From: Girardia tigrina
Taxonomy: Eukaryota
Assembly: GCA_001938485.1 (NCBI GenBank)
Contig: MQRK01218556.1
Coordinates: forward strand, 51,028-114,376
Direction of reading: 5' to 3'
Length of the DNA: 63,349 nt
Part shown: positions 4,147 through 63,303 of the stretch, one piece after another
Layout of the letters: each line of letters begins with the position of its first letter
Numbering within the stretch: position 1 is the stretch's first letter
The notes under the pieces: model-generated
Database searches by the model: none
What the model was told of the DNA's origin: nothing
Seen by the model: the letters and a program-made list of their open reading frames with translations, nothing else
Made by a program: the position numbers and the translations under genes

Positions 4147-4309
4147 AAACTGAAGAAATTCCTAAAAAGAATCCGGTAAATTCCAAAGAAACGATGGACC
4201 ATGATGTGAAACACTACACTAAATTATACCATCCCATCAGAGTTTTGGCGGATGAAAAAAAATCTTTGAATGAGAGATTGAAAAGACTTCATTTTCTTTG
4301 TCAAAAATT
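4147..4309 (+). CDS. Exon of the CNBD1-like gene
   Basis: Acceptor aatttag; TEEIPKKNPVNSKETMDHDVKHYTKLYHPIRVLADEKKSLNERLKRLHFLCQKL; donor gtgaga; phase 2 joins the exon at 4940. Confidence 0.75.
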
Positions 4310-4531
4310 GTGAGATTATTTTTATATTAAAATAAATTTTTCTACTTACAAATTTCAGTAGGATTTCATTTATCAAAATTGAAAAAGCAAATATTTTTAA
4401 AAAATTAAAAAAAATATTTAATAATATAAATAAAAAAATGATAAATTAATAAAGAAAGAAATAAATAAATAATGAATATTAAAATTAGTTAATAATTGGT
4501 CAGTCATGATTTGCTTTTAAAAGACTGTTAA

Positions 4532-4939: not shown

Positions 4940-5222
4940 ACCTTTTGAACGAACGTCAGATGAAACTGACAATATATTTCGAATACTTAAGACTTTTAAA
5001 ACTTTATCAAATCAAGTGGATGACGATTTGTTAAGGTTATTAAGCAATGTAATTCTAAACGAATATGTAGAAGAACCAGGTGTCACATTATTTGGCAACA
5101 AAGGATTTTATATTTTATTAAATGGAAGTATCACCCCTTTATCCATTCCATATATCAGATTGATTGGAGAACCCGCGGAAAGATTTTTTCAGGTACAAAA
5201 GAACGAAGACAAATTTTACAAG
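4940..5222 (+). CDS. Exon of the CNBD1-like gene (first, degenerate cNMP-binding domain)
   Basis: Acceptor tattttaag; PFERTSDETDNIFRILKTFKTLSNQVDDDLLRLLSNVILNEYVEEPGVTLFGNKGFYILLNGSI...; donor gtgact at 5223 (alternative in-phase donor at 5193). FYILLNGSI is a typical CNB-domain beta strand. Confidence 0.85.
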
Positions 5223-6894: not shown

Positions 6895-7058
6895 AATCAG
6901 AAGCGTTTTTGGGTAATCGCGGCCGTTGCTAGGGTACCGGGAACCAATCATAAGCGTTTCCAAGTGAACCGGAACCTTTGTAATGGTAACCGCGACAGTT
7001 GCCATGGTAACCGTGACCGTTGCCATTGCAACGGGTGCCCCCCCCCGGGGGTGGTATA
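6895..7058. repeat. GC-rich dispersed repeat copy 1: 21-bp-phased RFX X-box-like palindromes plus CCAAT
   Basis: gttgctagggtacc 6925, ccaat 6944, tttgtaatggtaac 6977, gttgccatggtaac 6998, gttgccattgcaac 7019; homologous to 52880-53065. Confidence 0.85.
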
Positions 7059-7238
7059 GAATGCTCATTTTCCCCCTACTGATGTCTAAGTACGAAAGTT
7101 TTGTGCAGAATAGTTCTAGAGGCATTTCAAGTTGTGATGTCAATAAAAGTATTGGAAATCAAATAAGTGTTCTTAATAACAACTTTTATTACTAATAATT
7201 TATTAGTAAAAAAAGATATTTAAAAAAGTTTCATTTAG

Positions 7239-7379
7239 TTATGTCCAGGAGAATGTTTCGGAACACTGGATGAGATTGTTCATGACGAAAAAGACTGTTC
7301 AAAACTATTGCTTTCAGAAACTCTAGAAACCTCTAATCTATTGTTTATTTCAACGTCTTATTATAGAAGAATTTTGGAG
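7239..7379 (+). CDS. Exon of the CNBD1-like gene
   Basis: Acceptor catttag; LCPGECFGTLDEIVHDEKDCSKLLLSETLETSNLLFISTSYYRRILE (CNB motif LxxGxxFG); donor gtaaaa; phase 0/0. Confidence 0.85.
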
Positions 7380-11920: not shown

Positions 11921-12760
11921 TAAATAAATATTTACTGATTATCTAGTTTTTAGGTATTTTTAAAATACCAATTTATTTTGAATAGCAAAAACCTTTTAGA
12001 TATTTTATATATATTTATTTGAGAGAATTTGATAAAATTTAATAATATTTTTAGTTTATCTCTTGAGAAATGTTCCTAAAAAGGAATTTACTAAACATTT
12101 ATGATTCTGTTGACCTATCTTCGTGTTATTTCAATGGATGGACGTGTTTTTATTTTTTTCAGTATCGGTTTACAATAACAATCTCTTTTGGGTCTAAATA
12201 TCGACTTGTTTCTTCTTTAAACATAAATATCTGATATCTTATTTTTAAAAGACATTTATTTATGTTTAGCCATAAAAAATTGCGTCCTATAAATTGTTTT
12301 ATTGTCTTTAAAAAATAATCTACCCATTAATTTCATAATTCCTTTCCTAAAATGAATCAAGATATTTTAATAATCCATGATTATTAATTAAGGGTACTAT
12401 AAATTATAGGTCTCAGCTGTTTTCTGATAGAGCCTCAATATGAAAATCTGTAAAATCCAGTGGCTCTTCACATTTTGAATGCGACAAAAGTTTAAAAAAT
12501 TAAAACCAACTATTTTAAATAATAACACAGAATAAATCTAAAAATTATAAAATTTTGAAGGCTATTCCCAAATTTTATTTTGTTATTAAATTTTAACTAT
12601 TTAAGTAAGATTCTTTTTTATAGAAAAGCCACATTTAGGAAAATATCCGGGACTCCTCAGGCAATTTAGTGGTTCCATATTTTTGAAAAATCGCTCGTGG
12701 TCTACTAAAATAATCTTGTGGCCCAAAAAGTCAGTGGCTTCATATTAAGAACCCCTATTA

Positions 12761-13952
12761 TTAGGTGTACAAGTATGAAATGCGGATTAAATTTTGAAAA
12801 GAAATACGTTAAAAACAAAAGAACGACAAAAAAAGCTTTATTCAAAATATGCTCCATTACTAATGATACATTTGTCCCATCTATATCTGAAATTGTGGAT
12901 ACCTCGCCAGTAAAAGTCTTCTTTTTTTTCCATGAACCATTCATCGACCCATTTTTGCACATTTTCGTAAGAATCAAAGCGCTGCTGAGCAAGTGCGTGA
13001 CCCATCGANNNNNNNNNNNNNNNNNNNNNNNNNNNNNNNNNNNNNNNNNNNNNNNNNNNNNNNNNNNNNNNNNNNNNNNNNNNNNNNNNNNNNNNNNNNN
13101 NNNNNNNNNNNNNNNNNNNNNNNNNNNNNNNNNNNNNNNNNNNNNNNNNNNNNNNNNNNNNNNNNNNNNNNNNNNNNNNNNNNNNNNNNNNNNNNNNNNN
13201 NNNNNNNNNNNNNNNNNNNNNNNNNNNNNNNNNNNNNNNNNNNNNNNNNNNNNNNNNNNNNNNNNNNNNNNNNNNNNNNNNNNNNNNNNNNNNNNNNNNN
13301 NNNNNNNNNNNNNNNNNNNNNNNNNNNNNNNNNNNNNNNNNNNNNNNNNNNNNNNNNNNNNNNNNNNNNNNNNNNNNNNNNNNNNNNNNNNNNNNNNNNN
13401 NNNNNNNNNNNNNNNNNNNNNNNNNNNNNNNNNNNNNNNNNNNNNNNNNNNNNNNNNNNNNNNNNNNNNNNNNNNNNNNNNNNNNNNNNNNNNNNNNNNN
13501 NNNNNNNNNNNNNNNNNNNNNNNNNNNNNNNNNNNNNNNNNNNNNNNNNNNNNNNNNNNNNNNNNNNNNNNNNNNNNNNNNNNNNNNNNNNNNNNNNNNN
13601 NNNNNNNNNNNNNNNNNNNNNNNNNNNNNCGAAACCATCGTTCACATGTATCTTGCGATGGGGCATATTCACCATAAGCTTCTTGGAGTAATCTGTATGA
13701 TTCAGCAGCAGTTTTCTTTAGATGGTAACAAAAAATTAGTACCGTCCGGGAATGCTCCCTGCTTGGCATAAATTTGGACATCTAAAACACAGAAATACAA
13801 CAATTATTAAAACGCTTTATCAATTTATGAGTTACGTATGAGACACTACATAATTACTCAATATTATGACATCATTGCCTAACCATTGACCTACTTTTTG
13901 CATTGTGCACAATCCGTTTTCTGAAATCCGCATTTCATACTTGTACACCTAA
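12761..13952 (-). mobile_element. Young Mos1-like (mauritiana-type) mariner, centre in an assembly gap
   Basis: Perfect 28-bp TIRs ttaggtgtacaagtatgaaatgcggatt with TA TSDs; N-terminus MSKFMPSREHSRTVLIFCYHLKKTAAESYRLLQEAYGEYAPSQDTCERWF and C-terminus SMGHALAQQRFDSYENVQKWVDEWF...FYWRGIH...RWDKCIISNGAYFE closely resemble Mos1. Confidence 0.95.
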
Positions 13953-14762
13953 TATAATTAATTGGTTATTCAGTGTTTAAAAATGCAAAAAAAAACTTTA
14001 TTCAAAAAAAAGTTCATAAAAAAACACTTTTTAAAACTTTTTTTATTATTATTTACTTTTAATAATATTAGCAAATATATTATTTGTCATATAAATCATA
14101 TGAATTTGTTCAAAATATGCTTCTCCTTAAATAATCTGCTTTTAAATTAAGTTGTTTTCAAGTTTATGGGAAATTAAAAAAAAATCATATTTTTCATAAG
14201 AACATTTTGAAGCCATGTGAGTTGTTGAGGATCTGTTTTTAGACCCTGACTCCGACCATAAATACGATGATTAAATTGTTCTTTTACGTATATAAGAGTA
14301 TTAAATTCCTTTTCAATAGCCGAGTCTGATAATTTCTTTGATCTGAAAACTATTAAATGTTTATTCTTATTGTAAATTTGAGTTAAAACTGATCTTTCTG
14401 TGGTAATCAGATGCTTCTGTTGGGATGAAGAATTACTAAGATAAAGAAGTAATTACCATCTTCTATTTTTGAGAATATTCCTCACATTGTTTCAACCAAA
14501 TAAGTTTATCAGAACAATATTTTTGTGTAAATCAGTTATTAGAACAAAGATTTTGGAAATGATTGGTGGCGAACTTCTAAAATATTGATTAATCCACAAA
14601 ATTGTCTTATCTATCTTTTAGTCCATAGTCTTTGAAATTATTGTTTATAACTATTTCTTTATCAGATGCTGTAGAGACTTTTCCTTTAACAACTATTTTA
14701 CCAAAAAATTTTGTTTTATTCATGGAAAATTAACATATGTTTTAGTTTAACTTAAGTTTCAA

Positions 14763-14937: not shown

Positions 14938-15544
14938 ATATACAACGTATAAAGTTAATCTTTTTATATTCTTTTATTTTAAATGAAATTAAAACTTAAT
15001 TTAATCAAATTGGATTCCGATTTTTATTACATTTGTATATTTTAAATATTCATGAAAAATAATAATAGTAACATTTGAATTCGTTAATTTAATACTTCTA
15101 ATTAAATAAATAAAAAAAACTTAAATTATATTATTTTATCAAATAAAAATTGCCTTCGTAGTGAAGCATTATTTATCCTCTTTTTGAATTAATTCATGTA
15201 ATCATAGTATTTAGCAGAGTTTGAAAAAATATAATTTAAAATATTATATATAATAATTTAAAAACATTTTGTAATTTTTAATTAATATATTTACATTTTT
15301 ATATAAATATTTGGTCAGCGAATATTAATTTTATTATATAAGTATTATTCAATTAATGATTAAATAATTTGAACAGTTTCAATTTTTATTAGATAAAATA
15401 ATATTAGTCAAATGTTTTTAGTAATTTATTTATGAGGTATAAAAATTAAATAATACATATTCCTGGAGGAGAAACGAGCGGAGGAGAAATGATACAAAAT
15501 GAAAAATCGAAAAAATTCTATTTTTTTTAATAAAATTTGAAATA

Positions 15545-16720
15545 CAGGGTGTCCCAAAAATATGTATACACATTAAAAATTTAATTTTATTGAATTTTAT
15601 TGAATTTTATTTATGTTTAACTTTCATTATATTTAATATAAATAGTTTTTTTTTAACATAAATAGGTTTTTTGTAGATTCAGTCCCTATCATAGGAATGG
15701 CATGCAGGCTTAACTTTGAAGAAAGAAAATTTATTATGAAATACTACTGGAAATATGAAAATGTACATGAAGTACAAAAACAATTCAGGAAGGAATTTAA
15801 AAAAGAACCTCCAACGCGATTTACCATCACTCGAATTAGAGATAAGTTCGAAGTTGATGGAACTATTCACAATGTTAACAAACAGCATGCCGGAAGACCC
15901 CGAACATCATCAAGTTCCACTGAGGTAGAAAGANNNNNNNNNNNNNNNNNNNNNNNNNNNNNNNNNNNNNNNNNNNNNNNNNNNNNNNNNNNNNNNNNNN
16001 NNNNNNNNNNNNNNNNNNNNNNNNNNNNNNNNNNNNNNNNNNNNNNNNNNNNNNNNNNNNNNNNNNNNNNNNNNNNNNNNNNNNNNNNNNNNNNNNNNNN
16101 NNNNNNNNNNNNNNNNNNNNNNNNNNNNNNNNNNNNNNNNNNNNNNNNNNNNNNNNNNNNNNNNNNNNNNNNNNNNNNNNNNNNNNNNNNNNNNNNNNNN
16201 NNNNNNNNNNNNNNNNNNNNNNNNNNNNNNNNNNNNNNNNNNNNNNNNNNNNNNNNNNNNNNNNNNNNNNNNNNNNNNNNNNNNNNNNNNNNNNNNNNNN
16301 NNNGATGGGGCACCCCCACATTACCATCGCGATGTTCGTTCCTTTCTGGATGAGCTCTTGCCAAACAGGTGGATTGGACGAAGAGGTTTTGTTGAATATC
16401 CTCCACGTTCACCAGACCTAACTCTACTAGATTTTTTCTTATGGGGATACTTAAAAGACAAAGTCTACGCTAAGAAACCTGCAACAATCGCTGAATTGAG
16501 AGAAGCAATTGAACATGAATGCAGCAAAATACCAAGGGAAATGTNNNNNNNNNNNNNNNNNNNNNNNNNNNNNNNNNNNNNNNNNNNNNNNNNNNNNNNN
16601 NNNNGTCAGTTTGAGAACAAACTGTGACCAATATAAATAAATATTACTCGTACTTATTTTTACTTTTTTAATCAATAAAATTAAATTTTTAATGTGTATA
16701 CATATTTTTGGGACACCCTG
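15545..16720 (+). mobile_element. Young Tc1/mariner-superfamily transposon with DUF4817-type HTH transposase (partly in gaps)
   Basis: Perfect ~48-bp TIRs cagggtgtcccaaaaatatgtatacacattaaaaatttaattttattga with TA TSDs; ORF MACRLNFEERKFIMKYYWKYENVHEVQKQFRKEF...GRPRTS and RWIGRRGFVEYPPRSPDLTLLDFFLWGYLKDKVY. Confidence 0.95.
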
Positions 16721-17060
16721 TATTTAATTGCTTTTTATTTTATGCATAGTAAAACGAATAAATTTAATAAAGTTTATTTAAGAATAATTAACTTATTAAT
16801 TTGGAATTAAAATTAAATAGTTATTTGAAGTAGTATTCAATTATACGAAGCAACAATATATACGGGAGATTTTAAAGAATAATAAAGAAAAATATTTTTA
16901 TTTACTAGTTTATAAGATATTTTTATTAATTTTACGTTATTTAATTTTATTCTATTTTTTATACTTGCGGCTTTTTGAATATTACTACTACTTCTATACC
17001 ATTAATAAATAACTTTAAACATATAGTGTCACAGAACTATATTTTGTTTTATTTCTTCAG

Positions 17061-17522
17061 AAATATAACACTCAAAAACATGCTGATAAGTTAACATTAC
17101 TTAAAAATCAAAAGGCGTTTACGGTCTGGCCACATCAAGCTCTAGTTAAAATTGCAAATATCTTTTCGTGGTCCAATATTCCAGCTCGAACATTGATTTG
17201 CAAGGAAGGCGAAATTTCTCCGATTCTCGCTTTCATTCAAGAAGGATCATGTTATGTGCTTCGAAAATTAGAAGTTAAAGAAACTTTACCTAATGGAAAA
17301 ACAGCAATTAAAACAAATCAAGTAATTGTTGGCGCATTGGAAAAGAATAAGTCTCTTGGAGAAGTCAGCCTACTTGATAGAACTCCAATGTTACATACGT
17401 TGTTGACCAAAGAGAATATGCGCGTTATGCAAGCTGATGAAAGTAAATTTCGGTACCTTGATCATGACGTTAAATCTCTTCTTCGTCAAAGTTGTACTCC
17501 GGAATTTTATCATATTACGAAA
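17061..17522 (+). CDS. Exon of the CNBD1-like gene (second cNMP-binding domain)
   Basis: Acceptor atttcttcag; 154 open codons KYNTQKHADKLTLLKNQKAFTVWPHQALVKIANIFSW...LICKEGE...AFIQEGSCYVLR...VGALEKNKSLGEVSLL...FYHITK; donor gtttgt. Confidence 0.88.
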
Positions 17523-40917: not shown

Positions 40918-41085
40918 AACCTAAACCATAACCATAACACTAACCCTAACCCTTTCTCTAAACCCTAAGCTTAACCCTTAACCTTAAGATTTAACCTAAC
41001 CTAAACCCTATTCTTAAGCCTAAGCCTAACCTAACCCATTAACTCTAACCCTCACACCTTACCCTAATCATAACCGCTAACCCTA
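40918..41085. repeat. Degenerate (CCCTAA)n telomere-like repeat, probably subterminal to a MULE-like element (~40020-41210)
   Basis: cctaaccataaccataacactaaccctaacc...; a shorter tract is at 8941-8962. Confidence 0.75.
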
Positions 41086-51480: not shown

Positions 51481-51815
51481 AACTCAATTAAAACAGAGAA
51501 TTTTGTATGAAACTTAAGTGATATTATATAATATTATATATAAAACCCCAGGAATTAGAGGTTACCATAAAGGATTCATAACAAGGATTCATATGAAGAG
51601 TTAAGGATGTGTTAATAATATTCATTTTGAGAAAATATTTCACAAATAAGAATAAATAATTAAAACTAATTATATTGTCAATATTAAAACAATATAATCT
51701 CCGACAGGTAAAATATCATAGCTAATTAGTAATTATTTTTATGAGATTATGTATTTTTTGTGTAGAAATTTGTCTTTTAATGGAGAAAATTGATTAATTA
51801 ATGAAAATTGTTCAG

Positions 51816-51968
51816 ACTGACGTAGAGAATATATACATGAAACAAAAAACTGATAAAGATTGGGTGAATTTCAAAGAAAATGTGATATCCGACGTGATAG
51901 ACTCCCGAGGAATACGACCCGGTCAAGGAAAATGGGGGATAATTACGAATCAAAAAGATATTTACTGA
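51816..51968 (+). CDS. Terminal coding exon of the CNBD1-like gene
   Basis: Acceptor ttgttcag, phase 0 matching the donor at 17523; TDVENIYMKQKTDKDWVNFKENVISDVIDSRGIRPGQGKWGIITNQKDIY*. The WxxFK helix and GIRPGxGKW tail resemble, from recall, C-termini of CNBD1-like proteins. Confidence 0.7.
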   Translation, partial: TDVENIYMKQKTDKDWVNFKENVISDVIDSRGIRPGQGKWGIITNQKDIY

Positions 51969-52734
51969 CAACATTTAATTTATGTCTAATATAACAAATG
52001 ATTCTTTAAGGAAAAATAATGTTAATAGAAAATTTATTGATAATTATGTTGAAAAATATAAAACTTTCACGAATTGCGTGACAATTTCTGGAATGGTGAG
52101 TTGTTCGGCACGGGAGACCATTTTGGCTATGTATTTTATTATTTATTAAATGAATTATTAAAAACTTTGAAGAAGCAATTTAAAAAAATTTATTTGCCTC
52201 TACTGATCTATTTTTATTTTCTTATTTATTTTTTGTTTACATTCTAAATATTGTCTTCAATGTTTTGTATCTTTTTTTGTATATTTTAAACTAAATATTC
52301 ATGAAAATCATTATTCTTAGTAGCATAATACTCTATATTTAAGTTTTGTTCCTGCAAAAGGCGATCCCAATAAAATATGTATTAAATGAACCCAAGTATA
52401 AGTTGAGGTATAAGACTGGGTTCTATGCAACTAAATGGGTACTTATACAATATTTTTATTAATATGATTTAATAAAAATAAATAATACATTTATTTTTTA
52501 AGTTTAACTCGGGTATTCTAATAAATTTGGAGTTTTCATTTCGCATTGTTTTTCTGAGTTTTGACACTTTAAATCTTTAGAAAATTATTCTAAATCTTTT
52601 GTTTGTCACATTTTCAGGTGTACAATCATCTAATGCAACAATGATTACAAAAAAATGAAATTTAGTCTATTTGTACCATATCAGAATCTGCAAAGTAAAA
52701 AATTAGTACTTTTTTCTACTGTCCTTAGTGATAG

Positions 52735-53070
52735 GGTGATGGTTGCTATGGATACTGGAACCGTTACCATGGTTACAACCACCTTGAATCACTGTATCCG
52801 TTGCTAATGAAAAAGGTCCCTTGGTTACCGTTGCTATGGTAACGAAGATCATGGTTAAGATCACCAAGTGAACCGGAACGGTTGCTATGGTACCTAGGAC
52901 CAATCAGAAGCGTTTCCAAGTGAACCAGAACCGTTGCTAAGGTGATCGGAACCGTTGCTAGGTTGATCGCGACCGTTGCTATGGTAATCCTGACCGTTGC
53001 CATGGTAACCGCGACCCTTGCTATGGTAATCGCAACCGTTGCCATGGTAGCGGCCTCCCCCCTTGGAAAC
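52735..53070. repeat. GC-rich dispersed repeat copy 2: array of ~11 RFX X-box-like palindromes plus CCAAT
   Basis: Units start at 52742, 52763, 52800, 52830, 52881 and at exact 21-bp spacing 52933/52954/52975/52996/53017/53038; ccaatcagaagcgtttccaagtgaacc is shared with copy 1. Confidence 0.88.
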
Positions 53071-53639
53071 GCTTCAGGCAAATACGTAAATCACAATACG
53101 GACAACTCGGTGAAGTTATTGTGAATAAACCTTAATACGGTAATCTCTTAATTATTTTGCAAGTCCACTTTCCATCTTTCCAACCCTGCTAGAACACTCT
53201 GAAACACGTTACGACACCTATTACTATCTGTTTTGCGAGTAATGAAGCCTGGAAAAAATTTGTTGAAATTAGAAATTTCGGTAAATACGAATCCATTTGA
53301 AATACTTACAAAAAAAAAGTCCTATCGTAAAATATCGAATTATTGAATGAAAAAAGTCAAATAAATCATCGAGAACGAAATGTTATTTTCCAAAATTAAT
53401 ACGGATAATGTGATTCATCTCAAAAGCGTTTACGATATGAATGTTGATTTAGTTACCGACTCAAACCCGATCAATTATCTCTTCAATTTGTTTTCTCCTA
53501 GGACTGAAAATATACAATTTGTGCCAATCCAACATGAATCAGGCGTGATTATTCAATATCGAACAATCATTTATCATATCGAATTAAATCACGAAAAATT
53601 ATTTTGACTATTTCAAATTCTGTAACACAACTGGCTTTA

Positions 53640-61170: not shown

Positions 61171-61393
61171 TAATCATCAATTGGAAATGTACATATTAGA
61201 AAAGTACAACCAAACAAATTGTTTAAAGATTTGCCTTTTCTTGATGCTGTAATTACTGCTAAAAGAAACACTTGGATTAGTCGGATTTTCTAATCAGGCA
61301 ATAATTTTTTGACTTCTTCCTCTTTCGGATTCTGACTTAAGTAACATATTGTATAAACGTTACAGGTTGTTCTTTAATCGCACCTTTTATATA

Positions 61394-61906
61394 TAGGGTT
61401 GCCTCATAAGTTTTGTCGCACACATATATCATATCTGTTGATGAAATTCTATTTAGAATCAATTTAAATGTTTTGTTCTGATTTTAAAGAAGAATATTAA
61501 TCAACAGACAACAATTTGCACAATTCTAGAATGTATTTGAAATGTTTTTATACATTTAATAAATAAGCTGAATGCACTTGGATTCACCGTACTACCACAT
61601 CCACCACACTCCCCCCAATCTCTCACCATCTGACTACTATCTATTCTCTCCAATGAAATGTGCACTAAGAAGAAAAAATTATGCCGGTGTCAACGATATC
61701 CACAAAGATCTTCTACATTGGTTTGACAAGAAACCGCGTGATTTTTTCCAAAATGGAAAAAAATACATCCTGGACGTTGGCTGAGATGTATTGAGCATAA
61801 TGGCGACTACTTTTTGCATTTGTATGACGTGGACGATTGATAAAATATTTGATATTTTATTGTATTTTGGTGTTTTTTTTGCGACAAAACTTATGAGGCA
61901 ACCCTA
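61394..61906 (+). mobile_element. Internally deleted mariner (513 bp, MITE-like)
   Basis: Perfect 27-bp TIRs tagggttgcctcataagttttgtcgca with TA TSDs; retains only the C-terminus HPPHSPNLSPSDYYLFSPMKCAL...RW. Confidence 0.93.
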
Positions 61907-63303
61907 TATTAATGTAATTATTTAGTCTATAAAACTTATCTATTCTTGTTTTACATTCATAGAACAACTCTTTGATCTGGATGATACATATGTTGGCAGT
62001 ATTGCAGAGCAGAAAGTATATTTGTGACACTACATTATTAATAAAGAAATATTTTAACACGAATATTATTTTTTTCTTTTAATAAAATTAAATTTTCCAA
62101 ATTTTGTGCCGTGCTATTTTTGTTAAAATATATAATAAATTAAATTTTGAATGATCTCATTTATGTATCTCTTGTGACGAAGACAAATAAATGTCACTTT
62201 AAGATTTTCTTGGGTATTTACTCAAAAAATGAAAGTCAAACATTCAAGGAAAAAGATTTATACTAAAAAGTATCAATATATTTATAAAAATAATAACATT
62301 AATTATAATAAAATCATAATAAAATAAATATTTAAAATTAAATTTATCTTAAAAAAATTATAAAATTTATAAATAATAACTTTAACAATGCTTCTAATTA
62401 TTTTTAATATAATATTAATTATTGTTTTTTTTTATAAATAATTTATTTTAATTTATTTCAAATTTAAATATTAATAATAAAATGATTAAATTCTTAACAA
62501 TGGATCTTTTAATTTTAATTACAAAATGTTTAAAATTAATTATTTTTTACATGAGCGATTAAATAATAATCTCATTTCGTGTTTTCTGAAAAAAATCATT
62601 AAATTTGATATATTTTCTTATAAATAATATTTTATTATTTATTCATTTTATATTAATTAAAAATATATTTTTGAAATTTATATTTTCCTGTGTAAAATTA
62701 CAAAATTAAAATTTTTATTTTATAAAATACATAAAAATGTAATAAAAAGATTTTAATAATGAAACATGAATTTATTCAAATTCGTAACTAATAAAATGAT
62801 AATTAAAATTAAAATTTATAAAATTGTGCAAATTTTTGATATTTTTGGGGGGTTTTCTTTTTTTTGTTTTATTTTACTCTCGACAGATATATTTTTGTGA
62901 GTCGTTTTCTTTTCTGGAAGTTCCACTGGCGGAATATTTCGAAATTCTTCGTTTTTCACTATTGTATTAGACTCATTTTGATTATTTTCAAAGGAAATTT
63001 TCTTTGGAACTCTTTTCAGATATAGAGCAAAACTAAAATCAATATTTTATAATAAATAAAATAAAATAAATATAAAGTTTATGTTAAACTATATATAATT
63101 TAACACATATATATTCTATAACAAAATGACTCGTTTTTACAAATTACGTGTCTTTTCACAAAGTCAAGGAAATAAAATTATTAAATTATTATTTCGCTTC
63201 TGTATAAAATCTATTTTAATAATAATTAATAGTTGTTCATAAACTAATTTTTAATATTATATGATAATTATAATTTTATCGATTTTGCTTTACAAGTTCT
63301 TAT

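Follow-up and report, generated by a model that had tools for sequence, protein, structure and literature searches.

The DNA analysed here (the window, a stretch of 63,349 nucleotides of a Girardia tigrina contig) is AT-rich animal DNA with spliceosomal introns, and a CNBD1-like gene on the plus strand covers at least 47 of its 63 kb. Using CNBD1-type proteins of limpet, amphioxus, coral, tunicate, snail and skate as tblastn queries, we located exons at 4941..5180, 7239..7379 and 51807..51968, the last of these being the last coding exon with the stop codon, and a weaker exon candidate at 4173-4310. The exon at 17055..17522 carries a cNMP-binding domain (Pfam PF00027, E 1.9e-06). A HMMER search with this exon returned 68 matches; its top eight relatives include six named clusters, five called CNBD1 or CNBD1-like and one 'cyclic nucleotide-binding domain protein'. 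A word-index search among longer proteins returned none in 413 candidates. Beyond the gene, 23 plus about 7 frames of 52.7-63 kb were compared with Pfam; no downstream gene for an array to serve was recognised there and only a DDE transposase relic scored.

The last intron of the gene (17522-51807, 34 kb) is dense with transposon relics, several with inverted terminal segments. Among them are a hAT relic at 28019-29681 (Pfam Dimer_Tnp_hAT) and reverse-transcriptase and GIY-YIG (Penelope-like) pieces at 30.3-37.5 kb and 43-45.2 kb. The elements at 12759-13954, 15540-16725 and 61391-61909 have perfect terminal inverted repeats of 30-54 bp, the first two with internal N gaps, and a DUF4817 HTH domain (Pfam) lies at 15646; judging from their frames, we take all three to be Tc1/mariner-like. 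The window also contains an intronic, degenerate telomere-like AACCCT tract (40924-41085, ~26 copies, 66% match), two inverted pairs of AT-rich dispersed repeats, each ~80% identical (5425-5547/50035-50156 and 53870-54017/63055-63194), and a perfect 48-bp direct repeat around a mariner-like relic (19965-20012/21728-21775, 1.76 kb apart).

An array of X-box-like units downstream of the gene

The original prediction placed at 52735-53070, ~770 bp past the stop of the gene and in very AT-rich surroundings, a mobile array of about 11 near-palindromic RFX X-boxes, delivered by a dispersed repeat and accompanied by a CCAAT box. We confirmed that the array described exists in the DNA. The stop codon ends at 51968, 767 bp before 52735, and the element has 50% GC against 27% for the window, GC content rising from ~25% to 45-50% near 52720 and falling back after 53080. 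We refer to this element as copy 2 and assign it to 52728..53075 on the plus strand, both boundaries being approximate; as a whole it folds strongly (z -4.07).

From left to right on the plus strand, copy 2 opens with an imperfect hairpin (52728..52793; DNA fold -10 kcal/mol, z -2.47, equalled in 2 of 200 shuffles) that contains the two leftmost boxes, at 52742 and 52763. The box scan then showed, in 52800..52880, a half-box at 52800, a full box at 52830 and a diverged 51-bp superunit lacking a CCAAT, with a degenerate box at 52860. It is followed by a 52-bp superunit (52881..52932) composed of a box, a 17-nt spacer with the CCAAT box (52900..52904, as predicted for 52900), a degenerate box and a 7-nt linker. 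Six tandem 21-bp units, each a 14-bp X-box-like core plus a 7-bp linker, occupy 52933..53051, and TRF reported a period of 21 with 5.8 copies and 81% matches at 52929-53049. Comparison with the second copy described below sets the limit of the array homology at a GC-rich cap and C-run (53052..53062). At the right edge, 53062..53075 on the minus strand is a perfect 14-bp inverted copy of 52907-52920, which has no counterpart in copy 1; this inverted pair exceeds the longest (13) found among 2000 shuffles. Just right of copy 2, 53089-53125 could form an 8-bp stem with a 16-nt loop, which is not significant against shuffles (z -0.71).

Where about 11 boxes had been claimed, we counted 13, starting at 52742, 52763, 52800, 52830, 52860, 52881, 52912, 52933, 52954, 52975, 52996, 53017 and 53038. 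Their positions bear out the exact 21-bp spacing of the six units at 52933-53038 as well as that of 52742/52763. The degenerate seventh box at 52912 is in register with the six, giving seven boxes in exact 21-bp register over 52912-53038, and the pair 52860/52881 is likewise 21 bp apart; the other gaps measure 37, 30, 30 and 31 bp. The proposal that the cluster lies on one face of the DNA did not hold, as 52800 is ~120 degrees off and 52742/52763 and 52830 are ~70 degrees off. Four of six distinct spacings fall within 1.5 bp of whole helical turns (p = 0.06; the exceptions are 37 bp and 15 bp), a phasing that is largely due to tandem duplication.

The motif of the original prediction, allowing up to 3 mismatches, gave 20 strand-matches in the window against 5.1 expected (100 shuffles, largest 10), 13 of them in copy 2, 6 in copy 1 and 1 elsewhere. 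RGYAAC half-sites occur 13 times in the 336 bp, compared with at most 5 in any of 5000 shuffles of the same sequence, and a nematode X-box consensus gave 6 sites there, compared with at most 2 in 200 Markov simulations. For scoring single boxes, RFX1 and Drosophila consensus strings were taken from PMC3414849. Three of the 13 boxes of copy 2 and one of the six of copy 1 agree with the RFX1 consensus GTNRCCN0-3RGYAAC, and three of the 13 of copy 2 with the Drosophila consensus; all four strict RFX1-consensus sites of the 63-kb window lie inside the two copies. The 5' half is intact in 10 of the 13 boxes of copy 2, the 3' half in 2 and both halves in 2. Thus the resemblance to RFX sites stands, whereas 'near-palindromic' was generous.

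A dispersed repeat and its subfamilies

Blastn detected a second copy of the element (copy 1; 78% over 102 nt, E 5e-17), absent from the listing of the original prediction. It is intronic, at 6895..7051 on the plus strand and ~190 bp before the exon at 7239, and consists of a truncated 51-bp superunit, a 52-bp CCAAT superunit (CCAAT at 6944), three 21-bp units and a C9G5 palindrome. The 52-bp superunit is the best-conserved part of the family: 52881-52932 and 6925-6976 are identical at 46 of 52 positions, with 14/14 in the degenerate box and 13/17 in the CCAAT spacer. The array units, aligned from the CCAAT, are identical at 12/21, 15/21 and 10/14 positions, and a right-anchored alignment of the two copies gives 35/46. 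Their upstream flanks and left ends are unrelated (10/30 and 20/61 identity). A profile scan of the window, in which 1798 bases are N, found no third copy, the only stray match being at 33033 (10.3 bits).

The repeat contains open frames, so that copies elsewhere surface as spurious predicted proteins. One protein search gave 2 matches among 10 candidates; a profile search through 1697 candidates recovered these two and two others, four in all. These outside copies (P0001, P0002, P0099 and P0100) are translations on short contigs of 604-1382 nt, devoid of flanking DNA. With two copies in the window and four outside, the latter seen as translations, the dispersal that had been predicted is borne out. 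Residues 76-94 of P0001 fit 52782-52838 with 4 mismatches in 57 nt, and residues 64-84 of P0100 fit copy 1 with 5 mismatches in 63 nt, each being the sole place in the window with 6 or fewer; the homology of copy 2 to P0001 extends from the array leftward to ~52782. Since P0001 fits copy 2 and P0100 fits copy 1, each specifically, there are at least two subfamilies.

The number of 21-bp units varies, with three in copy 1, six in copy 2 and ~3 to 6 in the outside copies. The 52-bp superunit is recognisable in all four outside copies, and a 51/52-bp superunit with the CCAAT spacer is present twice in P0002, P0099, P0100 and, truncated, copy 1. On its 3' side the array stops at a C-run or a C/G-run palindrome in both window copies and in three of the four outside copies; the palindrome proper is seen in copy 1 and can be read from the translations of P0002, P0099 and P0100, while P0001 begins inside the array. 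We rejected a long two-armed palindrome in which residues 10-16 of P0002 would mirror the right flank of copy 1 (7058-7078), as 320 places in the window fit with 6 or fewer mismatches and the best lies elsewhere; 3-residue mirror hints in P0099 and P0100 are likewise non-specific. A protein-coding repeat was also rejected, for the 51/52-bp units shift the frame, several frames are open on both strands, no Pfam match was obtained and all four protein matches are singletons. An exact scan of GTDB for the CCAAT-spacer motif gave 0 hits, and blastn of the element against plasmids and phages gave no match. Across the whole window there were 0 Rfam matches at the gathering threshold and 0 tRNAs (ARAGORN), which argues against a structured RNA, a SINE or a tRNA-derived element.

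The original prediction had also proposed looking for target duplications, terminal inverted repeats and a parent element; no convincing duplication or terminal repeats were found around either copy. At the approximate ends of copy 2 there is no target-site duplication of 6 bp or more, and the 8-bp candidate of copy 1 does not exceed chance, since at 49 of 174 random places a match of at least 8 bp turned up. The candidate ends have no inverted pair of at least 11/12, the best pairs being 10/12 and mostly AT-rich and copy 1 having none; both copies may be truncated. Within the window we found neither true termini nor a parent element, and the mariner, hAT and Penelope-like relics have no sequence in common with the element. 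The repeat is probably a short element left over from a transposon. Because none of these marks was found, its mobility and class are inferred, and a transposon origin is suggested by its dispersal, subfamily structure and common end.

Searching GTDB for a pair of X-boxes at a distance of 21 bp yielded two short contigs, L001 and L002, of one bacterial MAG labelled Ignavibacteria; the scan covered that spacing alone, and one of the 21-bp gaps is set by the query itself. Being AT-rich, laden with repeats and free of long ORFs, the two contigs look like animal contaminant DNA. They have in common a ~425-bp repeat (L001 1843-2254 and L002 2084-2508, 92% identity) with X-box cores at +27, +21 and +21, 15-bp tandem GCCATCTT units, three CACGTG and an inverted TGACG pair, but no CCAAT. 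Presumably GCCATCTT, CACGTG and TGACG are YY1, E-box and CRE-type sites, respectively. We rejected these contigs as members of the same family, as only 35-44-nt box matches (E ~1e-4) connect them to it and their repeat has no CCAAT. L002 also carries an inverted partial copy at 441-602 and a MITE-like inverted pair (838-880/2022-2064), and L001 a tandem palindromic repeat at 1-325. The find suggests, without proving it, that rows of X-boxes amid promoter-type motifs recur in animal repeats, which would weaken the case for a locus-specific ciliary enhancer.

Half-sites and the spacing to CCAAT

The distance from the middle A of the CCAAT to the first base of the next box (52933 in copy 2) measures 31 bp in each copy, and 30 bp where the unit is truncated. 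The published distance peak between RFX5 and NF-Y is 29 bp (PMC4889920), a figure not strictly like for like with our 31 bp, as it runs to a matrix edge. Moreover, a 21-bp array puts some box at the X-Y distance in about 2 of 21 cases (~10%) by chance, so the 31-bp match is only suggestive. Within these bounds the motifs agree with the predicted RFX(+NF-Y)-type content, with a CCAAT at about the RFX-to-NF-Y distance from a box. The relative orientation of half-site and CCAAT in the element is, we assume, that of the MHC class II X-Y module. Order, orientation and spacing of X and Y elements are conserved (PMC2278383, PMC4381081). Neither copy contains a TGACG or CGTCA (X2/CRE-type) motif.

The two halves of the boxes have not diverged equally. 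In 15 ordinary boxes we counted 4 mismatches in the 5' half and 17 in the 3' half (p 0.007), and in all 19 boxes, including the four degenerate ones adjacent to CCAAT, 12 and 24 (p 0.065), both p-values being optimistic because the units share ancestry. The better-conserved half is the one facing the CCAAT. RFX5 and RFX7 recognise one half-site and are found together with NF-Y, while the palindrome is the target of RFX1-3 (PMC8287911); most boxes of copy 2, with one half-site only, follow the RFX5/RFX7 pattern and not the palindromic one. Judged from these motifs, the half-site and CCAAT features fit a transposon-built landing pad for RFX5/7 and NF-Y better than they fit a ciliary enhancer. 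The most conserved stretch of all is the degenerate box (14/14), which is not an X-box and recurs inverted at 53062-53075; its conservation could equally reflect a transposition signal or an NF-Y footprint.

Planarians possess rfx7 and NF-YA factors (PMC9522251), and NF-YB maintains their spermatogonial stem cells (PMC4909293). Association of RFX proteins with selfish or repeated DNA has been reported for the AAV terminal D sequence, bound by RFX1/RFX3 (PMC5760533), at the 5' of one Xenopus Helitron locus, with RFX2 ChIP signal (PMC12001565), and on human ERVK, with RFX5 peaks (PMC11293539).

Origin and possible role of the repeat

We read this dispersed repeat, with its subfamilies, varying unit number, motif match and geometry, tentatively (a probability of roughly 45%) as a non-autonomous transposon-derived repeat whose module would be a putative landing pad for host factors of the RFX5/RFX7 type and NF-Y. 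The interior of such an element would be a variable-number minisatellite of 21-bp X-box-like units together with the 51/52-bp CCAAT superunit, and DNA-transposon machinery encoded elsewhere, either cut-and-paste or rolling-circle, would have spread it. An RFX5/RFX7-type factor on the conserved half-sites could cooperate with NF-Y on the CCAAT, and the module may thereby keep the end of the parent element accessible or transcribed, with stem or germ cells as a plausible setting. It would then have been retained for the benefit of the element and not of the neighbouring gene, and the present copies would be decayed relics that may bind RFX incidentally.

Periodic subterminal transposase sites occur in CACTA/EnSpm, Merlin and Mutator/Foldback elements, and the 21-mers could be such sites in a TIR DNA transposon, with the C/G-run as its terminus and an incidental resemblance to X-boxes and CCAAT. 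We consider this less likely than a landing pad but a serious rival; it is also the case that the original prediction had named as refuting it. The arrays do adjoin a common C-run/G-run end in both window copies and three of four outside copies, their units all point the same way, differ in number and are asymmetric, as transposase sites would be too, and a mirrored arm could have left behind the 14-bp inverted copy at 53062-53075. However, neither paired termini nor a target duplication was found, the left ends differ between copies, every strict RFX1-consensus site of the window falls within the two copies, and a similar 21-bp row of X-boxes stands among promoter-type motifs in the unrelated repeat of L001/L002. 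A reading that dispenses with a protein partner altogether, in which slippage and template switching from a palindromic seed produced a neutral minisatellite in a Helentron/HINE-like rolling-circle element, seems to us unlikely. HINEs have central tandem repeats, a 3' palindrome and subterminal inverted repeats of 12-15 bp, of which the 5' repeat lies 2-4 nt from the end, and they insert in T-rich (TT) sites (PMC4067079); Helitron minisatellites with helical periodicity have been described (10.64898/2026.08.08.743475). The element has central tandem repeats in its 21-bp units and 51/52-bp superunits, and copy 2 has an inverted pair of 14 bp and its strong fold. Yet the left member of that pair lies ~170 bp inside the element and so not at the distance seen in HINEs, copy 1 lacks such a pair, the candidate 3' hairpins at the approximate ends are not significant (z -0.71 and +0.92), and the asymmetry of the half-sites suggests constraint. 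Canonical Helitrons begin with 5' TC, end with CTRR ~11 nt after a 16-20-nt palindrome and insert at A|T (PMC4067079); in our copies no CTRR follows the C9G5 palindrome of copy 1, and copy 2 lacks the G-run.

A role for the neighbouring gene is the reading closest to the ciliary, DAF-19-type one of the original prediction, and we regard it as very improbable that the array was co-opted as an RFX(+NF-Y) enhancer and acts on the CNBD1-like gene in ciliated or sperm cells. Both window copies lie in or adjoin that gene, human CNBD1 is listed as testis-specific (PMC7436996), promoters of planarian cilia modules are enriched for the Rfx motif (PMC12660999), and HSE arrays carried by Helitrons are bound by HSF-1 and recruit genes (PMC6927752). 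Proximity is nevertheless expected, given how much of the window the gene covers. Ciliary X boxes are typically single and within ~50 bp of the gene start, and half-sites work in some fly targets (PMC3414849); the arrays here are intronic and 767 bp 3' of the stop, and no single site near the start of a ciliary gene is among them. Both half-sites are present in only 2 of 13 boxes, and the features kept by both copies are those of the family and not of the locus. A bolder extension of the landing-pad reading is that RFX arrays with helical spacing have arisen again and again at the ends of invertebrate DNA transposons, and that this family carries the X-Y geometry of vertebrate MHC class II and RFX5/7 promoters, uses it as a stem- or germ-cell promoter and scatters ready-made RFX/NF-Y modules over the host genome, where a number of them would by now control testis or ciliary genes, the CNBD1-like one included; this we hold to be quite improbable.

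Transposons with homotypic transcription-factor arrays are already known (PMC6927752). Among the papers listed in searches of an open full-text library, none describes an X-box minisatellite or RFX/NF-Y module in an invertebrate repeat; the family itself may already be catalogued in Repbase or Dfam. We take it to be a real repeat family with a suggestive RFX/NF-Y cargo, a known kind of element with a new cargo. If RFX and NF-Y bind, a composite RFX/NF-Y module would be spread here by a transposon family, in parallel, for an invertebrate, to the Helitron-HSF-1 case; this would hint that the X-Y geometry predates MHC class II, and transposon rewiring of RFX regulons would become testable. Even if inert, such repeats hold many of the best X-box matches of a genome (all four strict sites of this window) and can bias scans for RFX motifs as well as motif enrichments from ATAC data.

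The nearest known systems each resemble the repeat in part. Caenorhabditis Helitrons with heat-shock-element arrays likewise carry homotypic tandem factor motifs in variable number on transposon copies, and for them the class, HSF-1 binding and effects on genes have been shown (PMC6927752), whereas here the cargo is a putative RFX-like and CCAAT one and the class may be either cut-and-paste or rolling-circle. HINE/DINE-1 non-autonomous Helentrons (PMC4067079; compare PMC7492417) are also short, non-coding and dispersed, with central tandem repeats and GC-rich palindromes; unlike the HINEs of PMC4067079, our element has no subterminal inverted pair at its ends and no significant 3' stem-loop. 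The best units match the palindromic consensus of the ciliary X boxes of DAF-19/Rfx, which are single and promoter-proximal (PMC3414849), while those described here are arrayed, intronic or 3', and borne by a repeat. With the MHC class II X-Y module (RFX5 or RFX7 plus NF-Y; PMC2278383, PMC4381081, PMC4889920, PMC8287911) the element may have in common a half-site and a CCAAT at about the same distance, but it lacks the TGACG/CRE-type X2, is multiplied inside an invertebrate repeat and has no CIITA context. Finally, as in the AAV terminal D sequence (PMC5760533), an RFX-type site would stand at the end of selfish DNA; in AAV, a virus, it is a single site with demonstrated binding, and here it is a tandem array of predicted sites in a genomic repeat.
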